A stretch of DNA of 40,811 nucleotides from a virus, in the IMG/VR virus record IMGVR_UViG_3300045988_159006, positions 1-40,811 of that record. One strand, written 5' to 3'. The position numbers were made by a program, and so were the translations under genes. Under the pieces are notes generated by a model that was not told the DNA's origin, ran no database searches, and saw only the letters and a list, made by a program, of their open reading frames with translations. Below, piece after piece: positions 1 to 40,811 of this stretch (position 1 is its first letter; the number at the start of each line of letters is the position of its first letter).

Positions 1-29
1 CGTGCCTCCAGCAGGATTCGAACCCGCGA
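1..29 (-). repeat. att core, left copy (duplicated 3' end of a tRNA gene)
   Basis: cgtgcctccagcaggattcgaacccgcga is identical to 40783-40811. Its reverse complement gives T-arm GCGGG-TTCGAAT-CCTGC followed by acceptor strand TGGAGGC. The sequence to its right (30-90) cannot be folded as the rest of a tRNA, so this copy is only the fragment. Confidence 0.8.
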
Positions 30-3256: not shown

Positions 3257-3745
3257 TTATGTGAAATGCTCCTCAATGGGGGGAGTCGCCTGCTGCGCGG
3301 CTACTCGCTCCACGCCCGCATTAATCCGGGCAATAATCGCGTCATCATCAAAAACATCAACAGCAGGTTTGCGCTGGGTGCTTCGGATACCAACAGGCTT
3401 GTTTTCGGAGGGGATGTGCCTTACCGTCTGCTCCAATATATTAGATTCAGGAACAATTCGGCGCGCCAGTTCCAGCACTAGGGCGGCATCATCGGCGGTC
3501 TCCAGGAGCTGCCCCTCCGAATCCAGATACTCAAGCACGTCTTCATGCTTGATCCTGCCTAATTCAACCAGCGCCAAGGTTTGATTAATGCCTAGCTCAT
3601 CGCATAGCCGTATCAAATCATCTGATGGCAGCCCTTCATTCAAACGCTTGTTGGCGGTTTTACGTGTAACTCCAAGGATCGACGCGATTTCCTGATCCGT
3701 TATCCGCCTGTGTGCTGATTCGCTCAACCATCGCTTGATCTCCAT
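3257..3745 (-). CDS. HTH DNA-binding regulator, candidate immunity repressor / ImmR-like partner of the ImmA protease
   Basis: 162 aa. N-terminal HTH (ITDQEIASILGVTRKTANKRLNEG). Divergent from a Cro-like gene across an AT-rich 160-bp region. Confidence 0.6.
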   Translation of the reverse strand: MEIKRWLSESAHRRITDQEIASILGVTRKTANKRLNEGLPSDDLIRLCDELGINQTLALVELGRIKHEDVLEYLDSEGQLLETADDAALVLELARRIVPESNILEQTVRHIPSENKPVGIRSTQRKPAVDVFDDDAIIARINAGVERVAAQQATPPIEEHFT

Positions 3746-6600: not shown

Positions 6601-7410
6601 ATGGACAACAAGATCACACCATTCACATTCAACGATATCGAGGTGCGGGTTATTACCCGCGGCGGTGTCCCTTGGTGGGTTGCCGCCGATGTGGCCCACG
6701 CACTGGGGTACCGTGACGCGGGCAGGATAACCCGGTACGTGCGAGACCATCAAAAGGGGTCACAAAAATTGTGTACCCTTGGCGGCTCACAAGAGCTGCA
6801 GGTCATCAATGAGGCTGGCCTATACATGGCTATCATGAAATCCCATTCCCCACATGCCGAGAAGTTTCAGGATTGGGTGACCGAAGAAGTTTTGCCGGCG
6901 ATTCGGTCGCATGGTGGTTATCTCACCCCGGAGGCGACAGCCCAAGCGCTGTCTGACCCGGATTTCATTATCCGCTTGGCCACGCAGTTGAAGGAGGAGC
7001 GGGCCCAGCGTTTGGAGTTGGAAACCCGGGTGGAAGAAGCCGCGCCCAAGGTGATTTTTGCTGATGCTGTGAGCGCATCGACCACCTCGATCCTGGTAGG
7101 GGATTTGGCGAAGATCCTCAAAGGCAACTGTATTGATATTGGTGCTAACCGGCTCTTCACCTGGCTGCGGGCCCATGGATACCTCACCTCCCGCCGTGGT
7201 GCTGATTGGAACAGCCCCACCCAGAAAGCCATGGAATTAGGTCTCTTCGAGATTAAAGAAACCGTCATCACCCACGCCGATGGGCATATCACGGTTAACA
7301 AAACGCCGAAAGTCACGGGTAAAGGCCAACAATATTTTGTTGCTCGTTTCCTTGACGGCCGGTTCGATATCAACGACACAGGCGTCACAGTGACGAAACA
7401 AGGAGTATAA
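6601..7410 (+). CDS. Bro-N / KilAC-domain phage antirepressor
   Basis: 269 aa. Bro-N motif FTFNDIEVRVITRGGVPWWVAADVAHALGY. C-terminal KilAC/ANT-like region ILVGDLAKIL...ANRLFTWLRAHGYL. Confidence 0.8.
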   Translation: MDNKITPFTFNDIEVRVITRGGVPWWVAADVAHALGYRDAGRITRYVRDHQKGSQKLCTLGGSQELQVINEAGLYMAIMKSHSPHAEKFQDWVTEEVLPAIRSHGGYLTPEATAQALSDPDFIIRLATQLKEERAQRLELETRVEEAAPKVIFADAVSASTTSILVGDLAKILKGNCIDIGANRLFTWLRAHGYLTSRRGADWNSPTQKAMELGLFEIKETVITHADGHITVNKTPKVTGKGQQYFVARFLDGRFDINDTGVTVTKQGV

Positions 7411-7414
7411 AGGA

Positions 7415-7591
7415 ATGACCACGAGCACCCCCACCTACGAATCCCGCCTAGCACTACGATCCCTCCGCAGGCACGCCGCAGGCAAAAAGACCGGGCGGGC
7501 TGGGGTACGGGCCATGGAAGCCCTTGGATACGTCACCGAGGACGGCACTATCACCCCGGCCGGCAACCACGCCCTACACGGCGAAAAATAG
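7415..7591 (+). CDS. Small hypothetical protein (58 aa, below ORF-track cutoff)
   Basis: ATG at 7415 preceded by aaggagtataaagga. The frame is open to TAG at 7589-7591 and fills the gap between flanking genes. Confidence 0.4.
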   Translation: MTTSTPTYESRLALRSLRRHAAGKKTGRAGVRAMEALGYVTEDGTITPAGNHALHGEK

Positions 7592-7600
7592 GCGGTACCT

Positions 7601-7843
7601 ATGATAAAGCACCCGGAAATCCGTGATGCCCTCTACGAAAATGAGAAAAACAAACTCCGGCTCGAAATGAAACGCGAACGCCTCCAGGCGGCTAACCGCT
7701 GCTGCGCGCTGGAAGCCACCGGATACCACCCGCACCAGCAAATACATATTTGCGCCAGGCGCAGCGGGCACCGCGGCGGCCACCACGACTACGACACCGG
7801 ATTCCACTGGAAATGGGACAAAGAAGAAGGAACAACGAAATGA
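7601..7843 (+). CDS. Hypothetical protein
   Basis: 80 aa. Its stop overlaps the next start (ATGA at 7840-7843). Confidence 0.5.
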   Translation: MIKHPEIRDALYENEKNKLRLEMKRERLQAANRCCALEATGYHPHQQIHICARRSGHRGGHHDYDTGFHWKWDKEEGTTK

Positions 7844-8274
7844 CACACCCCTCAATCCAGCAAATGCTAGACAACCTGAAGTATCTCCGGGAAGAAACAA
7901 CCCTCCTAGATGAGAAGGATGAAAAACACCTACGGGTGGTGTCCCGCTGGATAGATTTCCTGCTAGACGATACCGACTACCAAGAGATGCGAAACCAGCC
8001 TGAACTCCTAGACAAACCCGACGACTATGGGACGCTCGTGACGTTCCTTCCTGCCCTGCCAGGGATCGGAGAAGGATCAAAATACATTATCGAGATCAGC
8101 CATCAAGGACCCGACGATATCACCATCACCATCAGTGACGACTGCCAGTATGGCACCTGCAAAATCACGCAGAAAAACCTCTACCAGCTAGCCCGAATGG
8201 CGCTAGTCATCCTCCTACAGACGGAAAACCTTAAAACCAGAGAATGGAACAAAAATGAACGCCCCGGCAAATAG
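7840..8274 (+). CDS. Hypothetical protein, paralog A of a tandem pair
   Basis: ATG at 7840 in ORF 7750-8274. Shares ...H(Q/C)GPD(D/Y)I...IT(Q/R)..LY(Q/R)LA...L..L with the next gene. Confidence 0.55.
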   Translation: MTHPSIQQMLDNLKYLREETTLLDEKDEKHLRVVSRWIDFLLDDTDYQEMRNQPELLDKPDDYGTLVTFLPALPGIGEGSKYIIEISHQGPDDITITISDDCQYGTCKITQKNLYQLARMALVILLQTENLKTREWNKNERPGK

Positions 8275-15473: not shown

Positions 15474-15896
15474 GTGCCGACCGTGCCCGGACCACCCCCG
15501 AAGAGGAATGCCCGCCGCCGCAATGCTAGACCCGACTGGGTGACGCTCCCCGCCGATGGGCGGAAGGGGCGAGCGCCCCGATGGCCACTGCCCGGCCGAG
15601 TGCAACGCGGTTGGGCGGAACTCTGGCGTCGCCCTCAGGCAGTCATGTGGGAACGCAACCACGACGAATTTTTAGTTGCTCGCTATCTCGTCCTGCGGAA
15701 CGCCATTCAAGACGAGCTCGATCACAGCGTGGTCAACGCCACCGCCATGGCCGAGCTTCGCCAAATCGAAGACCGGCTGGGGCTCTCACCCATGGCCATG
15801 AAACGTCTCCAATGGGAAATCGGCGATGTTGAGCAGTCCAAACCCGAAGATGATGGGGTGGTGATCGACGCCCATGACCGCTTCGCTAATCTCTGA
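15474..15896 (+). CDS. terS: Terminase small subunit (P27-family-like)
   Basis: 140 aa with GTG start after gaaagggg. Position upstream of TerL, plus WERNHDEFLVARYLVLRN...ELRQIEDRLGLSPMAMKRL. Confidence 0.7.
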   Translation: MPTVPGPPPKRNARRRNARPDWVTLPADGRKGRAPRWPLPGRVQRGWAELWRRPQAVMWERNHDEFLVARYLVLRNAIQDELDHSVVNATAMAELRQIEDRLGLSPMAMKRLQWEIGDVEQSKPEDDGVVIDAHDRFANL

Positions 15897-17637
15897 CCTC
15901 ACCATGCCACCCGGCTACTACCTCGGCGACAAAGGCGCCTGGTGCACGCTTCCGTGGCCCACCACCATGGACGAAAAACTCGACCTCATCGCCCACTCCC
16001 TAGGCCCCGCAGTCATCGACTGGGCCGAATGGCGCACCGACGAACCCGGCCTCCTCAACGACGACGGCGAACCCTGGCGATTCACACCAGGGCAAGCCCG
16101 CTTCCTCATTCTCTGGTACGCCTTCAACGACCAGGGGCGATTCATCTACCGGCGTGGCTGCAAACGCGGCAGCAAAGGCAGCGGCAAAGACCCTCTGGCT
16201 GCCGCCATGTGCAACATCGAGCTACTCGGCCCCTCCCAACTGCATTGGGACGGCACCCGATACGTGGGCAAGCAACACACCATGCCTCTGGTTCAGATAG
16301 CCTCCAACTCCGAAGAGCAATCGAAAGACGTCCTCCGGGTTGCTAACTCCCAGTTTGGTGTTGAAGCCACCAACTACTACGGGCTGGACAAGGGGAGGAC
16401 TGCGACCTTCGTGAAGACTTCCCCGGCCCGTATCGAAGTGCTTACCGCTTCAGAGCGGTCCTCCGAGGGGGACCCTGCTACTTTCATCGTGCTCAATGAG
16501 ACCCACCACATGACTCAACGCTCCGGCGGCCACGCGGTCGCCAAGGTCGCCCGCCGAAACGTCGGCAAATCAAAGAAAAGCGTGCAGGCCCGAATGGTGG
16601 ACTTCACCAACGCCCACCAGCGGGGCCAGGACTCCATTGGCGAAAAAACTTTCGAAGCATGGCAGAAACAGCAATCCGGTAAATATCCGCAGCTCAAGAA
16701 AGACATCCTCTATGACTCCATTGAATTTGACCCCAAGCTAGACATCTACGACCCCAAGCAGCGCATGCTGGCGCTCCAACAGGCCTATTCCGACGCCCCC
16801 TGGGCCGACATCGAACGCATCTCCGACGAAGTAGTGGACCCCGAACTCTCGGCAGGTGACGCTATCCGCTTCTACATGAACGGCTTAGGGGATGCCGAAG
16901 ACTCCTACGTGAGCGCCAAAGCGTGGGCGGCACTCGCTGACCCGTCCAAAGCATTCGAGCCGGGGGATCAGATCGCCATGTTCCTCGACTGCTCTAAATC
17001 GGAAGACGCTACCGCCCTCATGGGCTGCCGAATCTCAGACGGGTACAACCAAACGCTGGGCGTGTGGTCGAGGCCCCGCGGGCCCCGAGGCGAAGGCTAC
17101 CTCGTCGACCGCGACCAGGTGGACACCAGGGTACGAGAAATCATGGAACTATACAAAGTAGTTTGGTTCGGCGTCGACCCATCACCCGCCAAGGACGACA
17201 CCACCGAAGCCTCCTACTGGAGGCCCCTCATCGACGCATGGCACCGTGATTTCCGCCGAAAACTCCGCTGCTGGGCAACAAAAACCCACTCCGTCCTCTG
17301 GGACATGCGGCTTTCCGAACCCGGCGCCGCCGACCGGAACCGGCGCTTCTCCCAGGAGGTAGAAATCATCCAGGACCTCATCGACAAAGACGGCCTGGAC
17401 GGGCCATTCCGGCATGATGGCAACCCGGCGCTCACAGCGCACGTGAACAACACGAAAATCAGGTGGAACAAATTTGGCCTAGCGATTGGTAAAACCAGCC
17501 GTGACAGCCACCAACTCGTTGATCTATGCGTGGCCATGGTGGCCGCCAACGTAGGGCGTCGTGAAGCCCTGAACTCCGGCAAGGTCCGGGCCCGTAAGAG
17601 CGGCCCCAAGAAGCGAAGGAGAGTGATGATCGGATGA
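15874..17637 (+). CDS. terL: Terminase large subunit
   Basis: 587 aa with size, position and Terminase_1-like features (GSKGSGKDPLAA Walker A-like; FIVLNETHHM). The start could be 15904. Confidence 0.88.
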   Translation: MTASLISDLTMPPGYYLGDKGAWCTLPWPTTMDEKLDLIAHSLGPAVIDWAEWRTDEPGLLNDDGEPWRFTPGQARFLILWYAFNDQGRFIYRRGCKRGSKGSGKDPLAAAMCNIELLGPSQLHWDGTRYVGKQHTMPLVQIASNSEEQSKDVLRVANSQFGVEATNYYGLDKGRTATFVKTSPARIEVLTASERSSEGDPATFIVLNETHHMTQRSGGHAVAKVARRNVGKSKKSVQARMVDFTNAHQRGQDSIGEKTFEAWQKQQSGKYPQLKKDILYDSIEFDPKLDIYDPKQRMLALQQAYSDAPWADIERISDEVVDPELSAGDAIRFYMNGLGDAEDSYVSAKAWAALADPSKAFEPGDQIAMFLDCSKSEDATALMGCRISDGYNQTLGVWSRPRGPRGEGYLVDRDQVDTRVREIMELYKVVWFGVDPSPAKDDTTEASYWRPLIDAWHRDFRRKLRCWATKTHSVLWDMRLSEPGAADRNRRFSQEVEIIQDLIDKDGLDGPFRHDGNPALTAHVNNTKIRWNKFGLAIGKTSRDSHQLVDLCVAMVAANVGRREALNSGKVRARKSGPKKRRRVMIG

Positions 17638-19193
17638 CCCTCGAACTAATCCCCGACTACGAAATCGCAGACGACGAGCATAACCTCATCGTCAAGCTGG
17701 CGGGGCGGCTGCAAGAACACACCCAGAAGAACAGGCAAAAATGGGCTTACTATGAGGGCAAAAACGCCCTCAAAGATTTGAACATCGCCCTGCCCGCGGT
17801 TGCCAGCAGCATCCGGGCAGTGGTCGGCTGGCCCGAAATTGTCGTTGATTCCCTAGCGGAGCGGCTGGAGTGGCAAGGGTGGATATCCCCAAAGGCCGAC
17901 ATCAGCGAACTGGACCAAGTTTTTGCCGACAACGACTTGAGCTCCGAGTTTGCTAAAGCTACCCTGGAATCCCTCGTCACTGGCATGGGATTCCTCGAAG
18001 TATCAGCTGGTGGCGATGGCGAACCCACCATCATTATTGATGCCGTCACTGCCAATGAGGCCACCTACATGTGGGATGACAGGCTTAACCGCATGGCAGC
18101 AGGATACATCGAAAAAACCGGGGAAAACGGCGAAAAATACCAAACCCTACACCTGCCGGACCGGGTGATCTCTATCATCACCGACCCACGCGAAGCAGAA
18201 AAAGAAACCATCTGCGTCAAGCACGACTGGGGCAGGTGCGGCCTGATCCGTATCCCGAACCGGGCCCGCGCCGGGAAAGACGCAGGCGCCTCAGAAATCA
18301 CCACGGCCATCGAATACTACACCGACCACGGCGTGCGAACCGTGCTAGGCATGGAGTTCAACCGCGAGTACTACACCACCCCACAGCGCTATCTGCTGAA
18401 CGCGACATTCGACCAGCTAGGCCTAGACGAGGACGCGTCGGAAAGCGACCTCATCCAAATGGGGTGGAAAGTCGCCATGAGCAAAGCGCTTGTGGTGCCG
18501 CCGGGTGATCCTGATGACGGACTCCCCACCATCACCGCGGGCCAGTTCCAAGCATCCCCACCTACGCCATATATTGAAGAGCTCAAGATGATGGCACAGC
18601 TAGTATCAGCCCAATCCGGGGTGCCAGTATCCTACCTGGGGTTCGCCTCCGATAACCCGCCCAGCGCCGACAGCATTAGGGCCACCGAATCCCGCCTAGT
18701 GCGGCGCACTGAGCTCCGCCAGCTGGCGTTCGGCCGCCCACTGTGCCGTGATCTTGCCTACGTATGCAAAGCCATTCTCGACGGCAAGCCGCCCGAATGG
18801 GAGTTCATTGCCTCCCTCGAAGCGAAATGGCTGGCGGCCGCCACACCCACCCTGTCGGCAACCATGGACGCCATGACCAAAGCCGTAGCAGCCGAAATCA
18901 CCCCGAAACACTCCTCTGTCGTGTGGGGCCGGGTAGGGTTCAGCCAGACCGAGCAGGAAATCATGCGCAAGGAGCTCGCCGAACAATCCGCCACCCAACG
19001 CGCCACAGCACTTGCCGGCGGCGCCGCCACCATCGGCGATACCACCGTACTCGACCTGGCCAGGGCAAACCGTGACCCCGAAGAAACCCCCAACACCACC
19101 GAAGCGTCTACTGAAACCGACCTTCAGGAAAACACAACCGCTTCGCGGGGGGGGCGGAGGCAGATGACCTCAAACAACGCGCCGACGCCCTAG
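17634..19193 (+). CDS. Portal protein (zero-frame product; the C-terminus probably continues in the -1 frame to 19303)
   Basis: 519 aa directly after TerL (ATGA overlap). See the finding on the G8 tract at 19147-19154. Confidence 0.85.
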   Translation: MTLELIPDYEIADDEHNLIVKLAGRLQEHTQKNRQKWAYYEGKNALKDLNIALPAVASSIRAVVGWPEIVVDSLAERLEWQGWISPKADISELDQVFADNDLSSEFAKATLESLVTGMGFLEVSAGGDGEPTIIIDAVTANEATYMWDDRLNRMAAGYIEKTGENGEKYQTLHLPDRVISIITDPREAEKETICVKHDWGRCGLIRIPNRARAGKDAGASEITTAIEYYTDHGVRTVLGMEFNREYYTTPQRYLLNATFDQLGLDEDASESDLIQMGWKVAMSKALVVPPGDPDDGLPTITAGQFQASPPTPYIEELKMMAQLVSAQSGVPVSYLGFASDNPPSADSIRATESRLVRRTELRQLAFGRPLCRDLAYVCKAILDGKPPEWEFIASLEAKWLAAATPTLSATMDAMTKAVAAEITPKHSSVVWGRVGFSQTEQEIMRKELAEQSATQRATALAGGAATIGDTTVLDLARANRDPEETPNTTEASTETDLQENTTASRGGRRQMTSNNAPTP

Positions 19194-19334: not shown

Positions 19335-20552
19335 ATGGCGCGAGACTTGGATGCCGAAGCTGACTACCAGCAGGCCATGGATAACTTGCGGACCCTCGCT
19401 ATACGGGATTTGGTGTCCTGGTGGAAACAGACTGAAACCCTCGGCTTCGCCGACGCCAAGCAGCTTATGGAAGAGCCCTTCCAGGCGATTATCGCGGCCT
19501 ACGGGGAACAAGCCGCCTACGCCGCCGCCGACTACCTATTCCGCTCCCGCAGCCTCGACGACAACTTGAAAGGCCTGGAATATCCCGAAGTGGCCGACCC
19601 GGCAGAGTTCGAGCAAATCCTCGGCTCCTACGCCTGGGCACTAAACACCTCCCGCAACGCCACCGGCGGTTTGGATAGGCAGCTAGTGCTACGGAAACTC
19701 GCTGGCATCACTAACCGGCTCGTACAACAACCAGCCCGCGAAACCGTATACCAAGCCACCCGAAAAGCCGGCACCCGCTACGCCCGTGTGCCGGAACCCC
19801 ACGCCTGCACTTTCTGTCTCCTCCTTGCCAGCCGTGGTGCTGTCTACAGCCACGACACCGTGCTGCTCACTGAGGCCGGCAAAAAATACCACGACAATTG
19901 CAAATGCCTAGGTATCGAGGTGCAAACTCCCGCTGACCTACCGCGCATCAACCAAGAACTAGAACAAATCTACGCGGAATCCGGCAAATACCCCGGCAGC
20001 GACCAAGAAGCCTTCGCTGAAGCCATAGAGCGCCACCGAAACCAAACACCCGACTGGGTGCCACCAGATGCTCAGCGGATCACTGAAAGGATTTATCATG
20101 CCCCCAAAGTTAAACGCCGAATTCGTGTCGATGAAGCGTTATCTTTAGGGCTAAATGATGATGCTCCATGGCCGCCTGATGAAGCGAAAATTCGGGACTG
20201 GCTATATGCAAATGGGGCTAAAGAAGTTATCAAGCTCAAAGAGCTAGACAAGTTGCCGGATCGTCGTGGTGCAATTTATGCAGAAGAAACAGGCGTTCAA
20301 AACACACCAGATTCCATCGTTGACGGCGAAGCCGTGGAATTAAAGACCATAACATCAAAAAGCGGGATAAAAAACCGGGCTAGGCATGCTAGATATCAAG
20401 CAGGCACGCTTTTGTATGATGCGAGATCATTGGGTAACGCTGAAGCCGACATTATTAATAGCATGAAAAATGCTGTTCGAGATAATGGGGCCGACCTTGA
20501 TAGGATAGTGGTAATAACCGTAAACGGAACTCTATTGTGGGAAAGGAAATAA
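19335..20552 (+). CDS. MuF/SPP1 gp7-like minor head protein fused to a C-terminal PD-(D/E)xK toxin-like domain
   Basis: 405 aa. MuF-type region with C.FC...HDNCKC. The C-terminal ~150 aa (from about nt 20100) has TPDSIVDGEAVELKT...RYQAG...VVITVNG, resembling CdiA-CT-type nuclease toxins. GC drops in this part. Confidence 0.7.
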   Translation: MARDLDAEADYQQAMDNLRTLAIRDLVSWWKQTETLGFADAKQLMEEPFQAIIAAYGEQAAYAAADYLFRSRSLDDNLKGLEYPEVADPAEFEQILGSYAWALNTSRNATGGLDRQLVLRKLAGITNRLVQQPARETVYQATRKAGTRYARVPEPHACTFCLLLASRGAVYSHDTVLLTEAGKKYHDNCKCLGIEVQTPADLPRINQELEQIYAESGKYPGSDQEAFAEAIERHRNQTPDWVPPDAQRITERIYHAPKVKRRIRVDEALSLGLNDDAPWPPDEAKIRDWLYANGAKEVIKLKELDKLPDRRGAIYAEETGVQNTPDSIVDGEAVELKTITSKSGIKNRARHARYQAGTLLYDARSLGNAEADIINSMKNAVRDNGADLDRIVVITVNGTLLWERK

Positions 20553-20553
20553 A

Positions 20554-20934
20554 ATGTCTTACGTTGCTGCTATTTTTATTCAGCGAGCCGATGAATCGCA
20601 GGATGAAATTGTAGCTCGTGCTAACCAGCTTATTGCTGCGAATTTTTCCGCGATAGAGGCTGTGAGGACCGTTCGAGTTATGGCAAATGATCCTGGGCGT
20701 GCTGAGGACTTCGGGATTGTTGAGATTGATGTTATGCAGTCACGCAATCCTGAGGCGTTAGCTTTATTGCGGAGCATTTTCATGCTCCTTTGCGAAGAAA
20801 CAAATTGGGGCATGGAGCTTAATTGGGATGGTATTGAAGCAGTGGAACCTGATTTTGGTATTTACCTACGTCGTAATTACGGCACCAAGTACCCGGTTGA
20901 ATTTGATGAAGATGAGGAATTTCTTCTTGCGTAG
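20554..20934 (+). CDS. Candidate cognate immunity protein of the MuF-toxin
   Basis: 126 aa, acidic. It starts 2 nt after the toxin stop, lies in the same lower-GC segment and is followed by a terminator. Confidence 0.5.
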   Translation: MSYVAAIFIQRADESQDEIVARANQLIAANFSAIEAVRTVRVMANDPGRAEDFGIVEIDVMQSRNPEALALLRSIFMLLCEETNWGMELNWDGIEAVEPDFGIYLRRNYGTKYPVEFDEDEEFLLA

Positions 20935-20952
20935 TTTGGGCTAATCCAACCT

Positions 20953-20990
20953 AAAACCCGCGGCCTTGTAAGAAGAACGCGGGTTTTCTC
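20953..20990 (+). terminator. Rho-independent terminator
   Basis: aaaacccgcg-(15 nt)-cgcgggtttt ctc. Confidence 0.6.
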
Positions 20991-21152
20991 ATACCCAAAG
21001 TACACCGGAAGGGTGCGATTTGAAATCTGACCCTTTGAGACCGCTGGTGGCATACAGGATCATGCAATATAGCCCCCAGCTTACCTACCAAGTAACCCCC
21101 ACCAGGCTGGTGGGGGTTAACCATATCCATCACAGGAAAGGACGAATCACCC

Positions 21153-21773
21153 ATGCCAGCCAGAGCATTAGCAATACCCCCCTGGGTGCGAACCATCACC
21201 CCCGACATCCCTGCCGGTGGTGGCACGACTGATGCCGCCCAGGCGGATACCGCGACTCCGCAAGCCTCAGACCGTGAAAGCGAAACCCCCAGCGACAACG
21301 ACAGTGGCAATGATGATGAGGATGGCGACCCCGACCCCGAGCCGGGGCCGGCAGACGACGCGACCGTGTGGAAAAAACATGCTCGCACTTGGGAAAACCG
21401 GGCCAAGGAAAACCGGAAAACCGCCGACAGTCTGCAGGCCCAGCTTGATGCCGAAACGGGCAAAACCAAGCAGGCCGAGGAAGCCCTCGCTGAAGCAACC
21501 AAACGCCAACAAGCAGCAGAACAAACGGCCGCTCGCCTAGAGCTCGCCCTGGAATTCGGTCTCAGCCGGAAAGAAGCCGAAACCTTCCTCCACGGCGACA
21601 CCGAAGCCATGCGCACCCAAGCACAGTTACTTGCGGACCGCGCCGGGGCTGGGGCGTCGAAAAGCCGCCCCGCCACCTCGCCTCTCCAGGGCAAGGGCAA
21701 GGCCGGCTCCTCGAAAGAAAGCGACCGCAGCTGGGCGCGCCGCCTTATGGGCAAAACCAAAACCGACAAATAA
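21153..21773 (+). CDS. Capsid scaffolding protein
   Basis: 206 aa. Acidic N-terminal part plus Ala/Gln/Glu-rich coiled coil. Positioned before the decoration and capsid genes. Confidence 0.7.
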   Translation: MPARALAIPPWVRTITPDIPAGGGTTDAAQADTATPQASDRESETPSDNDSGNDDEDGDPDPEPGPADDATVWKKHARTWENRAKENRKTADSLQAQLDAETGKTKQAEEALAEATKRQQAAEQTAARLELALEFGLSRKEAETFLHGDTEAMRTQAQLLADRAGAGASKSRPATSPLQGKGKAGSSKESDRSWARRLMGKTKTDK

Positions 21774-21788
21774 AGGATGTGATCTATC

Positions 21789-22172
21789 ATGCAACTCAAC
21801 CCAATCCGCGAGCCTTTAGGGGTTGATAACCGCAAGTGGCTAGGCAGCCGCCACGGCGTGGCTAACGCCCAAACCATCACCATTGACGGGAAGAAAATCG
21901 CAGCTGTTGTGAAGGACAACGTTTTGCCGTCTGGTATCCCGCTGAAGCGGGGGGCTGGCGGTAAATACGAGCCAGTAACCGCGGTCGGTGACACCCTAGC
22001 TGGGTTCTTGCTCACCTCCCAGTCCGCCAAGCAGAAAGACGTGGATATCGTGGCCCCCATGCTCGACCACGGCCGCATCCGGGTGAAATACCTCCCCGAA
22101 GGCGTATTCGACATCACCACCTTGACCACCCCTAACCCCCATTTCATCCTCACCCCGAAGGAAGGTGACTGA
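21789..22172 (+). CDS. Head decoration protein-like
   Basis: 127 aa directly upstream of a gpE-like major capsid gene, which is the usual position for gpD-like or DUF2190 proteins. Confidence 0.5.
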   Translation: MQLNPIREPLGVDNRKWLGSRHGVANAQTITIDGKKIAAVVKDNVLPSGIPLKRGAGGKYEPVTAVGDTLAGFLLTSQSAKQKDVDIVAPMLDHGRIRVKYLPEGVFDITTLTTPNPHFILTPKEGD

Positions 22173-22177
22173 TTCTC

Positions 22178-23203
22178 ATGTTATGGACTGAAGTCGTACA
22201 GCCGCAGTCCCTCACCACTGTGGCCCGCGAAACCCTTGATGAGCGGGAACGCTCCAAAAACGTTCTCGCTCAATTCCTCCCCAACCGTGTCGTCGACGAC
22301 ATCTCCGTGAGCCTGTCTGCAACTAACAACGGCCTGGTCGAGGTTGCTGAATACCGCGCCTACGATGCTGAAACCCCTATCGGCGCTATGCCCGGTGGTA
22401 AGAAAATTTCCCTGGAACTTCCACCTCTGGGCCAGAAAATTCCCGTCAGCGAATACGATCAGCTCCGGGCCCGTGGCATCAACGCCCCAGCATCCGGCAA
22501 GGATCTGATCGGCCGGGCCACAATCACCGCAGCCCGGGCTGTCGCTGACCGGGTAGAGATGCTGCGTGGCGAAATCCTCACCACCGGTAAAGCCCTCATC
22601 AGCGAAAACCAGTTCAACGTGGAGCAGGATTTCGGCCGCGACCCCCGCCTCACCACCACCGTAGGCACCAAGTGGGACCAGTACGCCACCGCGGCCCCGA
22701 TCGAAGACCTGCAAGCCCAAGCAGAGGTTTACGCCAACCTCAGTGGTGAGGCGCCCGGCTACCTGCTGGTATCCCCCAAAATCATCACCAGCCTGATCCG
22801 ATGCGAAGAAATCCGCAAAATGGCCGGCGGCGTGAACGGCATCCCCAGCATGGTGACCGTGGACTTCCTTCACAGCGTGCTCGCATCCTTCGAGCTGCCA
22901 CCCCTCCTGCGGTACGACCGTAAGATCCGCAAGGGCGGAGCGCTCAAACGAGTCATCGACGAAAAAATCGCCATCATGCTCCCCGCTGTAGACGGCGAAG
23001 AATCCCCGCTAGGCCGTACATTCTGGGGCACCACCCTCGAAGCCGTCGATCCCGCCTACGGCATTGCCGAAGAAGACCGCCCCGGCATTGTGGTTGGCGC
23101 CTACCAGGAAGACGACCCGAAGTCCACCTGGGTGCGGGCCAACGCTATCGGCATGCCTGTTGTTGGTGACGCTAACTACACCGCGGCCATGACCGTCCTC
23201 TAA
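22178..23203 (+). CDS. Major capsid protein (lambda gpE-like family)
   Basis: 341 aa. The N-terminal pattern LAQFLPNRVVDD...EYRAYDAETPIG...LPPLGQKIPVSEYDQL is typical of Phage_cap_E proteins. Confidence 0.85.
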   Translation: MLWTEVVQPQSLTTVARETLDERERSKNVLAQFLPNRVVDDISVSLSATNNGLVEVAEYRAYDAETPIGAMPGGKKISLELPPLGQKIPVSEYDQLRARGINAPASGKDLIGRATITAARAVADRVEMLRGEILTTGKALISENQFNVEQDFGRDPRLTTTVGTKWDQYATAAPIEDLQAQAEVYANLSGEAPGYLLVSPKIITSLIRCEEIRKMAGGVNGIPSMVTVDFLHSVLASFELPPLLRYDRKIRKGGALKRVIDEKIAIMLPAVDGEESPLGRTFWGTTLEAVDPAYGIAEEDRPGIVVGAYQEDDPKSTWVRANAIGMPVVGDANYTAAMTVL

Positions 23204-40782: not shown

Positions 40783-40811
40783 CGTGCCTCCAGCAGGATT
40801 CGAACCCGCGA
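40783..40811 (-). tRNA. 3' end of a minus-strand tRNA gene continuing beyond the right window edge; att core, right copy
   Basis: Identical to 1-29. The reverse complement gives T-arm + acceptor strand TGGAGGC + A. The rest of the gene would lie outside the window, so the isotype cannot be read. Confidence 0.5.

Follow-up and report, generated by a model that had tools for sequence, protein, structure and literature searches.

What is a toxin-like nuclease doing at the end of a phage head protein, and why does a small acidic protein follow it so closely? The question is raised by a 40,811-nt stretch of viral DNA, IMG/VR record IMGVR_UViG_3300045988_159006 at its full length (hereafter the window), in which an open reading frame (ORF) of 405 amino acids (aa) at 19335-20552 on the + strand stands directly after the portal gene and joins a MuF-type minor head protein domain to a CdiA_C-type nuclease domain, being itself followed by an acidic ORF of 126 aa at 20554-20934 (+). 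A first, sequence-only reading of this segment had proposed a MuF-toxin fusion with an immunity-like gene and a terminator inside the head operon. Here, we use profile searches, structure models and comparison with relatives to arrive at an interpretation that we consider probably correct, namely that the pair constitutes a polymorphic toxin of the MuF family with its immunity gene, which a temperate Corynebacterium prophage carries in its head operon on an exchangeable module of ~1.1 kb.

A MuF-CdiA_C fusion and its acidic neighbour

The fusion and the small ORF belong to the late operon of a head module of siphophage type. The MuF position is defined by the portal gene (17634-19193, +; Pfam SPP1_portal, E value 5e-14), after which come, in that order, the fusion, the candidate immunity gene, and the scaffold, cement-like and major capsid genes. 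Residues 1-215 of the fusion (19335..19979, +) form a MuF4/VG15 minor head protein domain, the Pfam family VG15 matching residues 9-198 with an E value of 9.5e-36, above the curated cut-off. The family takes its name from gene 15 of mycobacteriophage D29, the product of which matches VG15 and aligns to the family profile with an hhalign probability of 95% (E value 2e-8). Because D29 gp15 is a VG15 protein and D29 is listed as MuF4-positive by Jamet et al. 2017 (BMC Biol 15:75; PMC5576092), who also report MuF4 to be homologous to Phage_Mu_F and Phage_min_cap2 by HHsearch, we count the VG15 domain as MuF4. A Foldseek search of the AlphaFold model against BFVD likewise retrieved MuF-like minor capsid proteins, from Mycobacterium, Gordonia, Rothia, Streptomyces and Microbacterium phages, with E values of 1e-10 to 1e-4. 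Within the domain, the cluster C158-x-x-C161 ... H186-D-N-C189-x-C191 (19806-19817 and 19890-19907) is invariant in VG15 proteins and probably constitutes a zinc site, or zinc-binding knuckle; the model has a predicted local distance difference test score (pLDDT) below 50 across residues 147-199, which cover the cluster. A linker of residues 216-261 (19980..20117, +) leads from this domain to the cargo and contains both the junction motif T238-P-D-W-V-P-x-D-A-x-R248 (20046-20078), the residues of which are at least 90% conserved in CdiA_C-type fusions, and the left boundary of the module at ~20064-20072.

The remainder of the protein, residues 262-405 with the stop codon (20118..20552, +), is a PD-(D/E)xK nuclease domain of the CdiA_C type. 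Pfam CdiA_C (PF18451) matches residues 324-399 with an E value of 3.4e-10 and 40.4 bits against a cut-off of 26.6, and the scores of relatives run from 25.7 to 68 bits, one protein (P0140, 25.7 bits) falling just under the cut-off. A profile of the C-terminal domain was built from 22 diverse domains that are 21-62% identical to that of the window. All sequences in their alignment share D326 and K337 and have either D or E at position 335; conservation of E283, P325, Q355, D362 and G385 is at least 90%. The predicted catalytic residues are E283 (20181-20183), D326 (20310-20312), E335 (20337-20339) and K337 (20343-20345), and the motif that they form is, as judged by this alignment, intact. The AlphaFold2 (AF2) model, with a pLDDT above 90 in the C-terminal half, has the order alpha-beta-beta-beta-alpha-beta, placing E283 on a helix (281-292), D326 at a strand (327-329) and E335 and K337 on a second strand (332-338), which is succeeded by a helix (344-352) and a further strand (358-362), the canonical order of the PD-(D/E)xK core. 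Two of the findings made by eye in the sequence-only reading, a PD-(D/E)xK core at the C-terminus of a MuF/gp7-like protein and a likeness to CdiA-CT-type nuclease toxins, are thus recovered by VG15 and CdiA_C and by the conserved motif, the top PDB match of the profile being the CdiA-CT structure 4G6V_A.

PF18451 belongs to the PD-(D/E)XK clan, and its characterised members, the CdiA-CT(II) of Burkholderia pseudomallei 1026b and SitA3, are tRNases (PMC9990079); because of these members, the nuclease of the window is itself most likely a tRNase. Matches in BFVD include proteins named 'CDI toxin-like' and 'tRNA nuclease CdiA C-terminal domain'-containing. A phmmer search of the C-terminal domain against 1.8 billion representatives returned only 20 proteins, nearly all of them VG15 fusions or fragments and none a CdiA, Rhs or LXG giant, so that the subfamily looks confined to the MuF context at that sensitivity. 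Single-sequence searches of PDB with this domain and with the 126-aa protein returned nothing.

The protein encoded next has an isoelectric point (pI) of 4.2, as against 8.2 for the toxin domain. Its start codon stands one base behind the toxin stop codon (TAA-A-ATG), not two as first read, and the Shine-Dalgarno sequence GAAAGGA (20542-20548) lies within the last toxin codons, an arrangement that implies translational coupling of the two genes. A homologue of the protein directly follows every CdiA_C-type fusion examined (8 loci, with 23%-58% C-terminal identity) and no other type of fusion examined: an EndoU fusion is followed by an unrelated ORF of 83 aa, a fusion of a third type by an unrelated ORF of 72 aa, and in L088 and L013 no ORF separates the toxin-less MuF gene from the scaffold gene. 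The homologues range in length over 111-138 aa, have pI values of 4.1-4.5 and often overlap the toxin stop codon, and their identity tracks that of the C-terminal domains across 28 locus pairs (Spearman 0.86). No orphan copy was seen in the 8 contexts shown of the 23 contigs read, the exact protein of the window always standing behind a toxin. Shorter than 150 aa, directly downstream and specific to the type of toxin, the ORF is probably the cognate immunity gene, much as it had been taken for at first sight. The family is small (16 clusters, each named one from Corynebacterium) and the 126-aa protein has no match in Pfam, PHROG, NCBIfam, PADLOC or PDB, whether by sequence or by profile. Its AF2 model (pLDDT 74) is a ferredoxin-like beta-alpha-beta-beta-alpha-beta sandwich, for which Foldseek found only generic ferredoxin-like neighbours with E values above 0.05. 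On these searches, it defines a putative immunity family without prior annotation, belonging to none that has been described.

An exchangeable low-GC module

The guanine-cytosine (GC) content, which is 0.58-0.66 on the flanks, falls to 0.42-0.48 across ~20050-21100, giving substance to the markedly AT-rich segment that the sequence-only reading had noticed. Resolved by feature, the part of the gene encoding the C-terminal domain and the small ORF each have a GC content of 0.45, as against 0.59-0.60 for the N-terminal part and the flanks, and the whole module (20064-21190) is ~45% GC in a backbone of 60%. In several relatives, too, the module is lower in GC than the backbone, irrespective of its cargo, which points to circulation among lower-GC hosts or phages.

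The limits of the module can be drawn from two independent comparisons. In the first, a blastn alignment of the window with the related locus L083, identity is ~91% up to 20071, undetectable across 20072-21152 and ~89% from 21153, the start codon of the scaffold gene, where it resumes; a forced MAFFT alignment of 20072-21152 with L083 gives ~40-50% identity. The corresponding proteins are 97% identical in the N-terminus but 36% in the C-terminal domain and 28% in the immunity protein. In the second, the window was compared with seven prophages from oral metagenomes that carry the same immunity allele. Here the backbone is the diverged part, with ~30 substitutions in the 645 nt of the MuF domain (about 5%) and 50-70 in the 621 nt of the scaffold gene (about 10%), and only 3-6 substitutions are found across 20064-21190. 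These seven loci were chosen by identity of the immunity protein, and the near-identity of the C-terminal domain and the spacer is independent of that choice. Dense differences among these same-cassette prophages stop at 19979-20063, and the left boundary of recombination in the DNA falls at residue ~244-246; the right end of the module lies at ~21152-21190. The boundaries from the two comparisons agree. Near-identical backbones thus carry different modules, and diverged backbones carry the same one, and the C-terminal domain, small gene and spacer are thus exchanged among phage backbones as a unit of ~1.1 kb. The left boundary lies just past the T238-R248 motif, which may serve as the homologous crossover point, in analogy to the VENN motif of CdiA proteins.

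The same slot holds other cargo elsewhere. In total 117 relatives were found, all those with an organism name being Corynebacterium and most being metagenome sequences. Homology to relatives with other C-termini ends at residue 209-216 of the window protein, so the extension is indeed present but is longer than the ~150 aa first estimated: the variable part is ~190 aa, at least 100 aa in any case, and its toxin domain is found also in CdiA proteins of the type V secretion system (T5SS) and in SitA3. Clustering of the C-termini gave 58 EndoU-like sequences, 26 of the CdiA_C type (that of the window included), 7 of a third, unassigned type, and single cases of Gln_amidase (papain-fold toxin 1) and of a second CdiA_C subtype; 13 relatives end after the MuF domain. 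At least five types of cargo therefore occupy one slot behind a conserved N-terminus. Swapping of the C-terminal domain among relatives, one of the comparisons on which the sequence-only reading had staked its proposal, is accordingly found, the slot being filled by CdiA_C, EndoU, Gln_amidase, ADP-ribosyltransferase, the unassigned type or nothing at all. Two loci have the toxin as a separate ORF behind a short MuF gene, namely an EndoU ORF of 136 aa in Corynebacterium kozikiae (L004 6754-7164, then a small ORF at 7154-7408) and an ADPrib_exo_Tox ORF of 152 aa in a Corynebacterium metagenome-assembled genome (L022 7097-7555, then a small ORF at 7548-7925); here either a fusion has been split or pseudogenised, or the cargo is free-standing within that slot.

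A different arrangement was seen in Eggerthellaceae/Coriobacteriaceae genomes. Here, in Eggerthella (L065 5827-6690 and L070 5827-6690), a protein of 287 aa consists of a shortened MuF fragment joined to a CdiA_C-like domain and is encoded directly upstream of the host genes for tRNA-Leu(cag) and tRNA-Ser, with no small ORF between. The locus may be what remains of a prophage at a tRNA integration site.

Kin discrimination, phage effector or neither

If the locus encodes a MuF polymorphic toxin, its mode of action can be outlined from gp7 of phage SPP1. Like SPP1 gp7, the MuF domain would dock on the portal within the capsid, in few copies, while the acidic partner would bind and block the basic toxin domain during virion assembly and possibly in lysogens too. 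That the toxin is packaged in the capsid and delivered with the DNA, on which the sequence-only reading had also counted, would likewise follow the precedent of gp7: the toxin would leave with the DNA or be released at lysis, cells without the matching immunity allele would be harmed, and possession of that allele would decide survival.

The domains and their conservation, the context specificity of the small ORF, its co-divergence with the toxin and the mobility of the module are matters of observation; the toxicity of the nuclease, its neutralisation and its incorporation into virions we infer, and this is the first of several points that tell against the interpretation. The VG15 alignment has no significant relationship to SPP1 gp7, a MuF1 protein, by hhalign (probability 1%); the link from MuF4 to MuF1 is taken from the HHsearch results of Jamet et al. 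2017. The best PDB match of the C-terminal profile, 4G6V_A, is the toxin of Bp1026b and is weak (E value 0.012), with hhalign to the aligned 4G6V fragment giving a probability of 84% and an E value of 7e-6. With the full-length two-domain model as query, Foldseek found nothing significant in PDB, so that support for the C-terminal domain at the level of the fold comes from the profile matches, the BFVD annotations and the order of secondary structure elements. A tRNA substrate cannot be told from a DNA substrate by sequence. The 126-aa protein resembles neither CdiI nor any other catalogued immunity family, and no promoter was detected from which immunity could be expressed in lysogens.

This last point bears on the strongest of the alternatives, which accepts the same anatomy but makes the nuclease an injected effector in the service of the phage, acting in host takeover or counter-defence by the logic of 'polyvalent proteins', and the small protein an inhibitor or chaperone that keeps the nuclease silent in the producer cell until packaging, rather than part of a weapon in the competition of lysogens with non-lysogens. 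The position in the late head operon and the translational coupling imply that both proteins are made while the phage grows lytically and not in the lysogen; upstream of the small ORF, no promoter of the lysogeny type was detected; and MuF-fused enzymatic domains have been interpreted in this way (PMC5512222). A conserved takeover function would, however, be expected to be under purifying selection, whereas the locus has an extreme turnover of alleles and a matched co-divergence of toxin and immunity protein, which is the signature of antagonistic kin discrimination; moreover, phages of the same lineage with a toxin-less MuF gene (L088, L013) are viable. We regard the effector as an unlikely explanation.

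It is much harder to see in the pair a toxin-antitoxin or abortive-infection module that aids the lysogen through phage exclusion or prophage stabilisation and merely landed in the MuF slot. Such a module could well consist of a basic nuclease adjoined by a small acidic partner, be mobile and betray a foreign origin by its low GC content, but in the loci examined the nuclease without exception forms an in-frame fusion with the head protein or occupies its slot, and is never found alone, the toxin-first order is that of polymorphic toxins, PADLOC gives no match, and the genes sit inside a late structural operon with no promoter of their own detected; this reading strikes us as highly improbable. 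Weakest of all, and scarcely credible, is the notion that the C-terminal domain is a catalytically dead or structural (e.g. DNA-binding) decoration and the small ORF an unrelated accessory of head assembly, for although SPP1 gp7 binds DNA (cited in PMC12226406) and the enzymatic role of the domain is a predicted one, the E/D/(D/E)xK residues are invariant or nearly so in relatives only 21-60% identical, and the small ORF has no counterpart in toxin-less relatives and changes with the type of toxin.

As a MuF polymorphic toxin, the fusion takes its place among systems that are already described. MuF was proposed as a capsid-packaging route for polymorphic toxins, in actinobacteria among others, by Zhang et al. 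2012, and the MuF family was defined by Jamet et al. 2017, who found small downstream ORFs in 89% of cases, named cd13442 (the domain of CdiA-2 from Bp1026b) and EndoU_bacteria among the cargo, described MuF4 as the actinobacterial family and mentioned a Bifidobacterium MuF4-EndoU toxin (PMC5576092). The locus is therefore an actinobacterial example of a MuF toxin, as had been suggested, but not the first. In common with the toxins of that study it has an N-terminal domain of the MuF superfamily after the portal, a toxin extension of at least 100 aa, a downstream ORF of fewer than 150 aa and a temperate context. It differs in its host, Corynebacterium not being found among those of the toxins in the searched text and tables, where the only Corynebacterium phage found is MuF-negative, and the pairing of MuF4 with CdiA_C was not confirmed from the portion of the supplement covered. 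Beyond that study, the window adds an immunity family without annotation, the boundaries of the module and the contrast in GC content. At the level of sequence it has every feature by which published MuF polymorphic toxins are recognised, and it does not represent a new kind of system.

Further comparisons place its parts. The CdiA-CT(II)/CdiI pair of B. pseudomallei 1026b (PDB 4G6V) shares PF18451 and the PD-(D/E)XK clan with the toxin domain, and the E, PD, D and Q positions align, although the lysine of the (D/E)xK motif in the window's family has no counterpart at that position; that toxin is delivered by a two-partner secretion (T5SS) filament, whereas the toxin of the window would be delivered by a phage head protein, and the 126-aa protein is without similarity to any solved structure, CdiI included. 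SPP1 gp7 (MuF1, Pfam Phage_Mu_F) is likewise encoded after the portal and shares a C-terminal 'CNCRC / DNCRC ... V' motif, and it is by reference to gp7 that the fusion would be incorporated into the capsid at low copy number and bound to the portal; gp7 differs in having no toxin domain and in having R/H where VG15 has its CxxC pair. In the Apk2 - IapK - Aph1 system of a Streptococcus pneumoniae prophage (PMC12226406), a MuF toxin was shown experimentally to be neutralised by direct binding of the small protein encoded downstream, with allele-specific immunity. Apk2 belongs to another MuF subfamily, however, is a (p)ppApp synthetase (nucleotide pyrophosphokinase) rather than a nuclease, and has two immunity genes rather than one. 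Among actinobacteriophages, MuF-like/ADP-ribosyltransferase fusions of Mycobacterium, Rhodococcus and Microbacterium phages have a homologous N-terminus in the same locus position, and match the window protein over residues 6-230 only, their C-terminal cargo being different.

What the window contributes to the MuF toxins is a clean, well-delimited actinobacterial case, in a phage whose host stands nearest to Corynebacterium matruchotii, which has a structural role in human dental plaque. The module can be mapped to the base, and the lineage offers a natural system for asking whether MuF toxins are packaged and injected, and equally whether the immunity allele of a prophage decides which neighbours survive.

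The spacer and the surrounding prophage

Between the 126-aa ORF and the scaffold-like gene lies a spacer of 218 nt with two hairpins. Hairpin 1 (20953..20987, +) has a 10-bp stem, AAAACCCGCG/CGCGGGTTTT, then CTCAT, and the tail TTTTCTCATACCCAAA. In its 81-nt context it folds at -28.7 kcal/mol (z = -3.8, 0/200 shuffles being as stable), and a simple terminator scan gave no call for it on the + strand, its loop probably being too long for that scan. Of the features of an intrinsic terminator it has the stem and the TTTTCTCAT tail, and many relatives likewise have, at their MuF-scaffold junction, a GC hairpin with TTTTnTnATGCCC behind it, on the gene strand in 44 of 46 cases. Across actinobacterial VG15 loci this hairpin, followed by TTTT(C/G)T(C/T)ATGCCC, stands just upstream of the scaffold gene, its stem varying in sequence with the pairing kept. 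The terminator that the sequence-only reading placed after the small gene therefore corresponds to a real hairpin, which is not specific to the toxin cassette, however, and occurs throughout the lineage in the MuF-scaffold spacer. In L081, the equivalent hairpin stands ~30 nt before the start codon of the scaffold gene, from which either late transcription passes it or it has another role, since without read-through by the phage it could not terminate efficiently there; hairpins of this kind might be read through, or act after RNA processing, for instance as a 5' stabiliser. Hairpin 2 (AACCCCCACC / GGTGGGGGTT; 21094..21118, +) lies just upstream of the ribosome-binding site of the scaffold gene, in a position equivalent to that of the pre-scaffold hairpin in L083, L012 and L008.

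The 106 nt between the two hairpins (20988..21093, +) align in position with tRNA-Ser-like genes of relatives, in several of which the two hairpins flank a tRNA-like element. ARAGORN calls a tRNA-Ser(cga) at L007 7466-7551, L012 1393-1478 and L087 5506-5587; in the spacer of the window neither ARAGORN nor Rfam found a tRNA or RNA family, and it may be a decayed tRNA-like remnant. Other relatives have mini-elements of 44-58 nt, which combine a canonical T-arm (GGGTTCGAnTCCC) with a D-loop-like GG and, 13-27 nt upstream, a possible acceptor stem. They are located at L003 7643-7687, L004 7398-7446, L006 7726-7783, L009 7492-7541, L010 7434-7483, L013 6706-6756, L020 7075-7118, L022 7970-8014, L084 3374-3418, L086 5533-5578 and L088 4698-4741. 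A terminator-like hairpin usually follows the tRNA-like element. Acceptor pairing in the mini-elements is modestly above that of shuffles in a custom scan (combined P 0.0013, some loci being non-independent), and no Rfam family matches them; they could be decaying tRNA genes or a tRNA-like signal for RNA processing. A function as attachment (att) sites was considered and rejected, the real att core being the 29-bp repeat at the ends of the prophage and the 5' acceptor strand seeming to be present. Also rejected, as unsupported, was a tie between the tRNA-like element and the tRNase toxin, since the element also stands beside EndoU-type and toxin-less MuF genes.

We read hairpin 1 as the terminator-like edge of a slot that, in this phage lineage, holds or once held a tRNA. 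A more far-reaching scheme would make of the fusion a capsid-delivered tRNase and of the immunity allele a key for kin recognition or superinfection among oral Corynebacterium, only cells with a matching module surviving the virions, and would add the tRNA-like mini-elements and paired hairpins found in this spacer in relatives as parts functionally tied to the module, either as a processing signal of the RNase P/Z type that uncouples toxin-immunity expression from that of scaffold and capsid or as a decoy for the tRNase; to this whole combination we attach very little likelihood.

The remaining genes of the head module are arranged around the fusion in the order small terminase (15474-15896), large terminase (15874-17637) and portal, and, beyond the spacer, the scaffold-like gene (21153-21773, +), recognised by its place ahead of the next two genes and the point at which DNA identity to L081 as well as L083 resumes, the cement-like gene (21789-22172) and the major capsid gene (22178-23203; Phage_cap_E). 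An antisense ORF of 400 aa (20951-22153, -) overlaps both the scaffold and the cement-like gene as well as the spacer; nothing supports its status as a gene, and most likely it arose by chance in GC-rich DNA. A megablast search with the head module found no relative of the window at the DNA level in the phage collection. The closest named protein is from C. matruchotii, and human oral metagenomes are the source of the near-identical contigs.

An exact 29-bp direct repeat, CGTGCCTCCAGCAGGATTCGAACCCGCGA, occupies both ends of the window (1-29 and 40783-40811, attL/attR) and, read on the minus strand, has the form of a tRNA T-arm with its 3' acceptor strand. With tRNA-derived att repeats at either end, the window is therefore exactly one complete prophage integrated in a tRNA gene. 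Its temperate nature is evident from these repeats together with a tyrosine integrase (69-1166, -) adjoining the left repeat, and an M78 (ImmA/IrrE-like) peptidase and Xre-like helix-turn-helix protein (2522-2941 and 3257-3745, -), a pair that looks like a lysogeny switch. Between the integrase and this pair is encoded a 351-aa HIRAN-domain protein (1355-2410, -), which could be a moron or a defence gene, and close to the right end of the window lies an M23 + GH25 endolysin.

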